From Candidatus Moraniibacteriota bacterium (GTDB lineage Bacteria > Patescibacteriota > Minisyncoccia > Moranbacterales > UBA1568), in contig CAVURJ010000001.1 of NCBI GenBank assembly GCA_963743885.1, positions 566,321 to 630,320 on the forward strand: 64,000 bases of DNA. Direction: 5' to 3'. Shown here piece after piece: positions 4,223 to 4,466 of this stretch (position 1 is its first letter; each line of letters starts with the position of its first letter). The notes beneath the pieces were generated by a model. The model searched no databases. It saw only the letters and a list, made by a program, of their open reading frames with translations, and had not been told where the DNA came from. The position numbers and the translations under genes were made by a program.

Positions 4223-4358
4223 ATATGCCCGGTAGCACAACTTCAAATGCAAAGCATAATGAGATCTGATTATTTAGAAATCTTCATTGTCGAGCGATAG
4301 ATGTGTGTGACAGGGTTTTATAGAAGATAATTTTTTGAAGTTGTTCTACTGGGTATGA
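4223..4358 (+). promoter_or_regulatory. Long-range inverted repeat, copy A. The 5' arm is atatgcccggtagcacaacttcaa (4223-4246) and the 3' arm is ttgaagttgttctactgggtATG (4336-4358), ending in the ATG of a 36-codon ORF
   Basis: Read directly from the sequence. The same architecture recurs at 43941-44099 and 47547-47680. Confidence 0.6.
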
Positions 4359-4466
4359 GTTTCAAGAAATGGCACAAGCGCGCGTATACATTCTGGGTAG
4401 TTATCTCCGTCCTCGTGGTCATTTCCATGGTGGCATTCTTGTTCGCGCCGTTCTTCATGTATTAGT
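4356..4466 (+). CDS. Putative 36-aa single-TM peptide (MSFKKWHKRAYTFWVVISVLVVISMVAFLFAPFFMY)
   Basis: The ATG lies inside the 3' arm of inverted-repeat copy A (gggtATGag). It has a hydrophobic core and a basic N-terminus, is upstream of ftsB-like, and is below the 60-aa cutoff of the ORF track. Confidence 0.3.

Follow-up and report, generated by a model that had tools for sequence, protein, structure and literature searches.

Start-codon inverted repeats in Patescibacteria as probable miniature forms of a compact mobile element family with a GIY-YIG nuclease gene

The sequence analysed here is a stretch of 64,000 nucleotides (nt) from a Candidatus Moraniibacteriota bacterium (contig CAVURJ010000001.1 of assembly GCA_963743885.1, positions 566,321 to 630,320 of the forward strand), hereafter called the window, which contains three copies of a long inverted repeat directly upstream of a gene for a hydrophobic protein of 36 amino acids (aa), of mrdA and of lysS. 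Probably, this inverted repeat constitutes the terminal inverted repeats of a miniature derivative (about 130-157 nt) without an open reading frame (ORF) of a compact mobile family found widely among Patescibacteria. Full-length members of about 310-350 nt would consist of one gene only, encoding a GIY-YIG nuclease of 93-106 aa that resembles Slx1/UPF0213, with its first codons (MPGS/MPGR...) and, in some subfamilies, also its last codons and stop lying within the arms. The elements appear to sit exactly on the start codons of host genes between direct repeats of (T)ATG, the right ATG re-creating the host start, and the GIY-YIG protein is the putative mobilising enzyme. This reading is carried by the anatomy of the element, its dispersal over unrelated genes and lineages, its presence or absence at orthologous sites, the arms common to both forms and the complementarity kept between these arms. 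Related genomic regions and loci with elements are referred to by labels of the form L203 or L123, and proteins by labels of the form P0013.

Three copies in the window

Copies A (4224-4357), B (43943-44099) and C (47548-47680) have a common layout of TATG, 20-nt arm, loop, 20-nt arm and TATG; the downstream gene starts at the second ATG. The first-pass annotation had described an inverted repeat that embeds the start codons of these three genes, and the arms lie where it placed them, the right arms ending in the ATG of the 36-codon ORF (4355-4465), of mrdA (44097) and of lysS (47678). Its reading is corrected in one respect, as the TATG flanks form a direct repeat outside the palindrome. The arms of copy A span 4225-4247 and 4334-4356 (separation 86 nt, complementarity 87%) and those of copy B 43944-43966 and 44076-44098. 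A 22-nt arm pattern has five matches in the window compared with 0.01 expected from dinucleotide-preserving shuffles. The features of the three copies are as follows.

4212-4217, + strand: predicted -10-like hexamer TACACT, 7 nt 5' of the left ATG of copy A
4224-4227, + strand: left TATG of copy A (direct repeat), with the start of a 14-codon remnant ORF, MPGSTTSNAKHNEI (4225-4269), at its ATG
4228-4247, + strand: left arm of copy A, CCCGGTAGCACAACTTCAAA; 26 bits with the arm hidden Markov model (HMM)
4248-4333, + strand: loop of copy A; similarity to the loops of B and C not above background
4334-4353, + strand: right arm of copy A, TTTGAAGTTGTTCTACTGGG
4354-4357, + strand: right TATG of copy A; ATG 4355 is the host start; one TATG without the 130-nt insertion in L203, L204 and L206
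4355-4465, + strand: host gene of copy A, encoding the conserved 36-aa hydrophobic protein MSFKKWHKRAYTFWVVISVLVVISMVAFLFAPFFMY; ORF also present in L203, L204 and L206
43943-43946, + strand: left TATG of copy B, directly 3' of the mreD stop; opens the 8-codon remnant MPGSRISK (43944-43970)
43947-43966, + strand: left arm of copy B, CCCGGTAGTAGAATTTCGAA
43967-44075, + strand: loop of copy B, with a strong internal hairpin of its own at 43995-44037
44076-44095, + strand: right arm of copy B, TTCGAAATTTCACTACCGGG
44096-44099, + strand: right TATG of copy B; ATG 44097 is the start of mrdA, the ORF of which extends to 45986
47495-47523, + strand: promoter-like TTGCCT-17-TAAAAT 5' of copy C, conserved in L123
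47548-47551, + strand: left TATG of copy C; its ATG opens a 25-codon remnant ORF (47549-47626)
47552-47571, + strand: left arm of copy C, CCTGGTAGTAGAACTTCGAC; same left arm as in the other copies
47655-47676, + strand: right arm of copy C, GTCGAAGTTTCACTGACTTAGG, degenerate and with a 2-nt insertion; only 13 bits with the arm HMM
47677-47680, + strand: right TATG of copy C; ATG 47678 is the start of lysS, the ORF of which extends to 49138

Gene calls exist for the 36-aa ORF in both L203 and the source contig, and the conservation of its product was established via orthologues of the neighbouring genes. The mrdA product contains the Pfam domains Transpeptidase and PBP_dimer, and its N-terminus aligns from residue 1 with element-free homologues. 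In RNA folding, the arms of all three copies are paired in the minimum-energy structure, with -43.3 kcal/mol (z-score -4.8) for copy A, -53.5 kcal/mol (z -6.8) for copy B and a weaker fold of -28.8 kcal/mol (z -1.6) for copy C.

Distribution and anatomy of the family

Further copies of the motif, for which the first-pass annotation had looked to a genome-wide search, proved numerous: the exact pattern TATGCCYGGTAGNNNAAYTTCRA, sampled with one genome per species, yielded at least 112 loci, and the matches listed include 108 non-redundant copies with a matching right arm. Re-sampling with a separate HMM for each arm, in which pairing was not used, resulted in 126 unique elements. All sampled genomes are metagenome-assembled genomes (MAGs). 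Nearly all loci listed derive from Patescibacteria MAGs labelled as Moran-, Kaiser-, Uhr-, Sung-, Buchanan-, Adler- or Kerfeldbacteria, Parcubacteria or Saccharibacteria, and several of these MAGs contain at least six copies among the matches listed. Window proteins are themselves about 70% identical to proteins named Moraniibacteriota or Moranbacteria. A few loci stem from MAGs carrying the labels Bdellovibrionales or Gammaproteobacteria. Among these, L048 (Bdellovibrionales) encodes a protein with 83% identity to a window protein, and its label is therefore taken as a mislabel. The single match in Lachnospiraceae has no right arm and is probably due to chance. The left-arm pattern had no match in viral contigs, thus giving no sign of carriage by phages.

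The arm consensus is CCCGGTAG NNN AAYTTCGA N (20 nt), and the arm pair reads CCCGGTAG...CTACCGGG. TATG flanks on the same strand occur in about 95% of the copies (left 119/126, right 120/126); TATG precedes 123 arms, and CATA is found in this place when the arms are read on the opposite strand. As TATG is a direct repeat, UAUG can pair with UAUG on the sense RNA, which results in a G-U wobble at the base of the stem. Copy lengths are narrowly distributed, with 88 of the 108 copies measuring 120-160 nt and a sharp mode at 140-141 nt. The ORFs that open at the left ATG of miniature copies comprise 8-51 codons before a stop, of which the first 7-9 are retained from the nuclease ORF (MPGRTISNR...). 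Loops at different genes in JBDRFP01 are related to each other (69-80%). Furthermore, L056 contains tandem copies (7435-7864) that abut with one common TATG between neighbours, and copies 1 and 2 of this array differ in the loop.

Several additional features of the sampled copies were recorded. Copies 2-4 of the L056 array are identical and reach the contig end, so that the array may in part reflect misassembly. An internal arm-like RAYTTY motif in left-arm sense is enriched in the loops of miniature copies (61 occurrences versus 25 +/- 5 in shuffles) and clusters 20-40 nt 5' of the right arm (for example in L036, L017, L076 and L009); it could form an alternative, shorter hairpin with the right arm or serve as a second protein site. 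About half of the subfamily with GTGAAA arms (for example L003, L004, L061, L065, L071 and L044) carries a small GC-rich hairpin that adjoins the left arm on its 3' side and in many cases precedes a run of A; the hairpin sequence varies from copy to copy with the pairing kept; other arm subfamilies are without this hairpin (mean z -1.3 in GTGAAA-arm copies versus about 0). All copies hold a stop codon in their left end when it is read as TAT GCC CGG TAG, so that an upstream ORF entering the element in that frame stops within 12 nt. At the ATGA overlap where the element of L048 corresponds to window position 26307, the upstream gene runs in another frame and gains a new C-terminus.

Full-length form and its GIY-YIG protein

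Eight copies of 307-395 nt hold an ORF for a GIY-YIG protein of 93-106 aa between the same arms (PF01541, E 1e-14 to 1e-18). In seven of the eight, this ORF begins at the left ATG, with the left arm encoding MPGS/MPGR-T-I/T-S. In one subfamily it ends in ...NNSKLY; its stop codon TAA lies within the right arm (CTAACCGGG) and is separated from the host ATG by 6 nt. Full-length and miniature copies of the same arm type co-occur within MAGs, as in L011 with L039 and in L004 with L003, L065 and L074. The Pfam families found on the ORF between the arms are of GIY-YIG type only, and no HUH (Y1) transposase was detected there.

Homologues of the nuclease (81-112 aa) form 330 clusters in the protein collection that was searched, annotated solely as 'GIY-YIG nuclease family protein' or 'putative endonuclease', and 86 of the best 120 of these 330 clusters start with MPGR, MPGS, MPST, MPSS or MPSN. 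The catalytic residues Y14, Y25, G27, R35, H39 and E59 are invariant in 39 diverse sequences. The nearest proteins of solved structure by sequence are the UPF0213 members BH0048 (1zg2, E 1e-5) and EF2693 (1ywl, E 3e-3). The AlphaFold model (predicted local distance difference test score 84) has 1zg2 (BH0048) as its top Foldseek match, followed by Slx1, at 25-29% identity and a root mean square deviation of 2.1-2.7 A; E-values against UPF0213/Slx1 range from 6e-4 to 1e-2, and I-TevI (E 0.9) and UvrC match far more poorly. The protein is a single, bare catalytic domain of about 95 aa without a DNA-binding domain.

Filled and empty sites in relatives

Relatives of the copy A region (L203, L204 and L206) were retrieved via the neighbouring 710-aa TrwB-like protein (89%, 82% and 80% identity, respectively). 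All three encode the 36-aa gene within homologous flanks and have one TATG and no element at this site, the junction reading ...acttgatacactaaacgaTATGagtttcaag in L203 versus ...acttggtacactaagaaaTATG[130 nt]agtttcaag in the window. The reverse case was found one gene downstream, where L203 has a 132-nt element at the ftsB start (L203 4790-4921) and the window has a bare gtATG. As the element of L203 lies at ftsB and that of the window at the neighbouring start, the sister lineages appear to have acquired their elements independently. For copy C, the closest relative found via MrdA (L123, LysS N-terminus 79% identical) likewise contains homologous flanks, including TTGCCT-17-TAAAAT, and a single TATG without an element. 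Elements of L048, L079 and L099, the last of which is full-length and located at proS, face empty window sites at 26307, 39800 and 13434, respectively. Eight of nine empty sites read TATG, compared with 54% of window genes that have T at position -1. Among 80 MrdA loci, an element at mrdA is present in only two, both of which differ from copy B in arm subtype and length. Empty orthologous sites with a single TATG indicate that the elements are insertions accompanied by duplication of (T)ATG (3 or 4 nt).

The L203 locus also illustrates an effect on annotation, as ftsB (DivIC) is called there at 4958-5317, 39 nt 3' of the element-ending ATG at 4919. Judging from homology with the window FtsB (MLKRKWL...), the predicted true start of L203 ftsB is the right ATG of the element. 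Elements may thus systematically disturb the annotation of start codons, with gene callers misplacing starts or calling spurious short ORFs.

Complementarity of the arms

Complementarity between the arms is maintained throughout the family. The first-pass annotation had noted arm-to-arm covariation between copies of the window, and this is borne out by 88 aligned copies, in which 91.9% of cells pair; the covariation score was reached by 0 of 500 shuffles, and slid registers pair at only 22-50%. Three columns, 18-159 (CG49/UA38/UG1), 22-155 (GC77/AU10) and 24-153 (AU31/CG30/UA14), change pair type with hardly any unpaired cells. Across the 126 elements, and with positions 9-11 excluded, 1972 pairs are Watson-Crick (96.7%), 26 G-U, 12 A-C and 29 other, and compensatory double changes occur at 13 of 17 arm positions. 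Positions 9-11 form a mismatch or bulge that is specific to the subfamily. Variants at positions 14, 18 and 20 co-occur in one MAG, each with a matching partner arm, which suggests that pairing is preserved and not one fixed sequence. In L031 (minus strand, element starting at offset 675 of the reversed locus), the canonical outer arms CCCGGTAGT.. are combined with a different inner half, CCCCTCACC, on both sides; arm families can therefore diverge wholly and yet stay complementary. In addition, the old orthologous copies L153 and L174 at mrdA differ at about 11 arm positions with pairing kept, comprising two compensatory and five sense-strand G-U changes versus one or two A-C.

An Slx1-like enzyme might recognise the hairpin or cruciform formed by the arms and cut at its base next to TATG. 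Recognition of structure by the nuclease would account for the free variation in arm sequence alongside conserved complementarity, and the modelled Slx1-like nuclease fold would be in keeping with a need for a DNA hairpin or cruciform.

Position at start codons and host genes

In 98 of the 108 copies, the right ATG opens an ORF that is at least 60 aa long or runs off the locus, compared with 33% of all TATG sites in these loci. Alignments of host proteins with element-free homologues begin at N-terminal residue 1, and the right ATG is thus the true start. Random insertion into non-coding TATG was rejected as the cause of this bias: 28 of the TATG sites of the window lie at start codons, 61 at other non-coding positions and 309 inside genes, and avoidance of coding sequence alone would therefore place about 31% of insertions (28/89) at starts versus more than 90% observed, a preference that needs a further cause.

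The host genes are diverse. Scanning of 84 host proteins identified 137 Pfam families, none of which occurs in more than two hosts. Hosts include aminoacyl-tRNA synthetases, FtsZ, PBP2, topoisomerases, gyrase, CTP synthase, ribosomal proteins (L10) and RNase H, and no envelope or translation theme is apparent among the 84.

The start contexts of the window themselves have T at -1 (TATG) in 27 of 50 long ORFs (54%), the preferred start context being identical to the target of the element. A full-length GIY-YIG element (protein P0013) occupies the start of rnc, encoding RNase III, in many samples (L113-L122). RNase III would be the expected cutter of such RNA hairpins; this position is probably a coincidence.

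Weighing the explanations

Taken together, the diverse hosts, the empty sites, the nuclease gene and the tandem copies form the signature of a mobile element. We further propose, as a possibility that falls short of being probable, that the family represents an unrecognised class of transposable elements, comprising a one-gene transposon of about 310 nt and its miniatures, in which an Slx1-like nuclease reads its own hairpin or cruciform and targets (T)ATG starts. Targeting might perhaps occur at melted promoter DNA of leaderless genes, with the element seizing the initiation signals and handing the host a new ATG.

Several points weigh against the mobile-element reading. Stand-alone GIY-YIG domains are not known to act as transposases, mobility and nuclease activity are both predictions, and no GIY-YIG gene was found in the 64-kb window. 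No near-identical copies were found within one genome, and loop identity within a genome is 57-80% compared with a random baseline of 54 +/- 9%; copies within a genome have diverged and thus give no sign of recent activity. The preference for start codons (more than 90% versus 31% expected) is unexplained by the present model. The exact left-arm pattern includes TATG, which biases some of the counts, and HMM re-sampling lowers this bias but does not fully remove it. The translation model outlined below is weakly supported, with most left ORFs of miniature copies ending 40-130 nt before the right ATG. Finally, after removal of the TATG flanks the two strands fold equally well (sense -40.9 versus antisense -40.7 kcal/mol, p = 0.63).

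Recent transposition within a genome was considered and rejected, as near-identical copies are lacking and the loops of the window are no more alike than random pairs.

The first-pass annotation had interpreted the repeat as a cis-regulatory module common to envelope and translation genes, in which pairing appears to be under selection and an RNA hairpin or a dyad protein site is involved. A host regulatory RNA hairpin that sequesters the start codon and controls a set of genes in response to some signal could account for the very stable folds (-43 and -54 kcal/mol, z -4.8 and -6.8, for copies A and B), for the UAUG/UAUG pairing that extends the stem across both AUGs on the sense strand only, and for the strong arm covariation. 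Weaker hints in its favour come from the copies L153 and L174 at mrdA, which stay paired despite about 11 differences, and from the excess of G-U over A-C pairs (26 to 12, p = 0.03, uncorrected for relatedness). However, the hosts have no common function (137 Pfam families among 84 hosts), the element is absent at orthologous sites of the closest relatives, which argues against an ancestral regulon, and the same arms bound a nuclease gene, occur in tandem and enclose unconserved loops. The strand signal is also lost on closer inspection: whole elements fold better on the sense strand in 78 of 100 cases (p = 4.5e-10), but the arm duplex energies are symmetric between strands, and as the difference vanishes without the TATG flanks, the sense-strand bias is no evidence about the arms. 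Strand asymmetry of whole-element folding, being caused by the flanks, was therefore rejected as support for an RNA role. Furthermore, an Rfam scan of the window at gathering thresholds detected tRNAs only, permissive scans of copies A and B returned miRNA-hairpin noise far below threshold and no family, and a scan of 12 loci with atypical copies identified one tRNA only. The part of the earlier claim that concerns kept complementarity is retained, with pairing that may act in RNA or in DNA, and the regulatory module itself is abandoned as an unlikely explanation; individual copies may secondarily have been exapted for regulation.

Similarly doubtful is a homing or selfish GIY-YIG cassette that is spread by nuclease-induced repair, with the short forms being internal deletions that arose in place and were not mobilised in trans. 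GIY-YIG nucleases are, as a matter of general knowledge, classic homing endonucleases, miniature copies retain the first 7-9 nuclease codons, and both forms occur at the same kind of site, the start codon, a bias that would be explained if only expressed full-length copies spread. Against such a cassette stand the lack of a DNA-binding domain in the catalytic domain of about 95 aa and the more than 80 different target genes with (T)ATG alone in common. In addition, the narrow 140-141 nt mode and the related loops of JBDRFP01 fit propagation of miniatures better than independent deletions.

A site acting at the DNA level is highly improbable, whether as a dyad operator bound by a transcription factor or as the recombination sites at which a promoter is inverted: it would suit symmetric arms about 100 nt apart just 5' of genes, pairing without strand asymmetry and the -10-like hexamers (TAGAAT, TACAAT) of some arm variants, but a protein site would keep its sequence and here the arms change in concert, even wholesale as in L031 (CCCCTCACC), no inverted loop was seen among the copies and the remnant ORF always follows the left ATG, TATG is a direct and not an inverted repeat, and the sites are present or absent between close relatives.

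Expression context and translation

As judged from the scarcity of Shine-Dalgarno-like motifs (7 of 50 long ORFs in the window), initiation in the source organism is predicted to be mostly independent of such motifs. A TANNNT hexamer 6-12 nt 5' of the left ATG was identified in 47 of the 108 copies versus about 16 expected from background, and in ordinary window genes TANNNT lies 5-12 nt 5' of the ATG in nine of 50. The TACACT site of copy A (4212-4217) is kept at the unoccupied position in L203, which has TTGATA-16-TACACT in front of the 36-aa gene, ending 7 nt before its ATG; a promoter scan at the set thresholds returned nothing at this site. The TANNNT enrichment and the L203 promoter 7 nt before the ATG suggest that many host transcripts probably have no leader or hardly any, in which case the left arm would lie at their extreme 5' end. 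Other copies are internal to operons, such as copy B directly 3' of the mreD stop and the L048 element, which faces an ATGA overlap in the window.

Recognisable promoter-like sites are predicted upstream of the left arm, and for copy C the predicted promoter at 47495-47523 would lead to a transcript containing both arms. Promoters within the loop or an arm were considered and rejected: the scan found no site there in copies A and C and one weak site in copy B, which uses TAGAAT in the left arm and is treated as incidental because arm variants with C at position 14 are without this hexamer.

In the proposed translation model, the left AUG would keep the native initiation context of the host and open the element ORF or its remnant. 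A stem formed in the mRNA would bury both AUGs, and ribosomes starting at the left AUG would melt it while translating the nuclease or remnant peptide. They would then terminate within the loop or, in full-length copies and some of the miniatures, 6 nt 5' of the right AUG, which could thereby become free for initiation or re-initiation of the host gene. Stop-start coupling was rejected as a general route of host translation, as most miniature stops lie 40-130 nt before the right ATG; a stop 6 nt before it occurs only in full-length copies and in one 142-nt subfamily. A copy probably lowers the expression of its host gene without specifically regulating it.

Comparison with known systems

No published description of such an element was found in a limited full-text literature search. 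The miniature form has the structure of a miniature inverted-repeat transposable element, being small, ORF-less and dispersed, with terminal inverted repeats, target duplication and insertion polymorphism. A partner with the same ends was found, also in the same MAGs, and encodes a GIY-YIG domain only, not a recognised transposase.

The Correia elements of Neisseria are ORF-less repeats of about 100-160 bp with terminal inverted repeats of about 20-26 bp and a TA duplication, and occur in many copies by genes; they are co-transcribed with their neighbours, and their mRNA hairpin is reported to be cut by RNase III. By description, the present family resembles them in size, ends, short target duplication, dispersal and predicted hairpin co-transcription. 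It differs in that the (T)ATG start codon is duplicated, leaving the element between two functional ATGs, and in that the partner is a GIY-YIG nuclease of 95 aa instead of a DDE transposase, with the arms being part of its coding sequence.

Rickettsia palindromic elements are inserted in frame inside ORFs and translated within the host protein, and are not known to be associated with a nuclease. Both are palindromic selfish repeats of reduced genomes that persist through expression-compatible insertion, but the present element lies at the start codon, outside the host protein. REP/REPIN-RAYT systems and IS200/IS605 elements depend on HUH/Y1 transposases, have no terminal inverted repeats flanked by duplications and lie mostly 3' of genes. 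Shared features are small hairpins recognised by structure, one small gene flanked by repeats and, for IS200/IS605, a target tetranucleotide; here, in contrast, a GIY-YIG gene is the sole ORF, an HUH enzyme is missing and the elements are tied to start codons.

With I-TevI and the T4 Seg proteins, the family has in common that a selfish gene encodes a GIY-YIG nuclease (PF01541). Those enzymes have a DNA-binding domain and one cognate site, whereas the present protein is a bare domain found at more than 80 host genes, and an I-TevI-type homing endonuclease was rejected for lack of both a DNA-binding domain and a single cognate site. The best sequence and fold matches of the encoded protein are UPF0213/COG2827 (BH0048, EF2693) and Slx1, which, according to titles of Protein Data Bank entries, cuts branched and stem-loop DNA near the junction. 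Members of these groups are not known to be mobile or bounded by inverted repeats, and Slx1 has a RING domain and needs Slx4.

Ribosomal RNA (rRNA) genes of the candidate phyla radiation (CPR) carry uncharacterised insertions, some encoding GIY-YIG proteins and others short and ORF-less (PMC11270868). They occur in the same host group but in rRNA genes, and no inverted repeats or sequences are reported there; they may belong to the same family. In this comparison, the element appears to depart from every known family considered here in its start-codon target, its bare GIY-YIG partner and its arms being part of a coding sequence.

If the mobile-element reading is correct, the genomes of the ultra-small CPR/Patescibacteria, which count among the most streamlined of all, carry a widespread selfish element that persists on the start codons of essential genes, and a stand-alone Slx1-like GIY-YIG protein would join the enzymes that move DNA in bacteria. 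The family would also offer a natural system for studying initiation on mRNAs that mostly lack Shine-Dalgarno motifs and whose start is buried by a 20-bp stem. In addition, the arms are a simple sequence marker for Patescibacteria contigs in metagenomes.

Other inverted repeats in the window

A second long hairpin (4494-4601) lies between the 36-aa gene and ftsB and has 36-nt arms that are 72% complementary (ATGTTCGGATTTCGAG ... CCGAAATCCGGATAT). These arms resemble shortened element arms, with TATT instead of TATG at the right flank. The hairpin is absent from L203, L204 and L206, and in L203 the canonical element fills the same spacer. Its interpretation as a second family with shortened arms was rejected, as no other copy was found in the approximately 1.7 Mb examined. 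Just 3' of the TrwB-like gene, a 20-nt inverted repeat (4149-4206, TTTATCCTGTGAAATTCTGC / GCTGGATTTCACAGGGTAAA) is kept nearly base for base in L206 (4714-4765) and is absent from L203 and L204.

Further downstream, a perfect 32-nt inverted repeat (CCCGCCCGAACGTACCGTTCGGTACGGGCGGG, 49298-49506) brackets tRNA-Val(CAC) at 49350-49424, and its second arm overlaps a low-scoring tRNA-Val(CAC) at 49487-49559 (32.6 versus 72.3 bits). A different, low-complexity hairpin family with GAATC/AAGAAT-like units (e.g. TTCTTGATTCTTAATTCCTGATTC) was identified at 11251-11360, 42374-42529 and approximately 51060-51107, directly 5' of the starts at 11370, 42540 and 51108. Long intergenic inverted repeats with simple-sequence arms (AAACACAAACCCCAAAC..., TAATATCTAATTCCAAATTTCTAA...) are located at 19393-19512, 28443-28632 and 29857-29972, the last of which sits between divergent genes. 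The intergenic regions of the source genome are unusually rich in hairpins.

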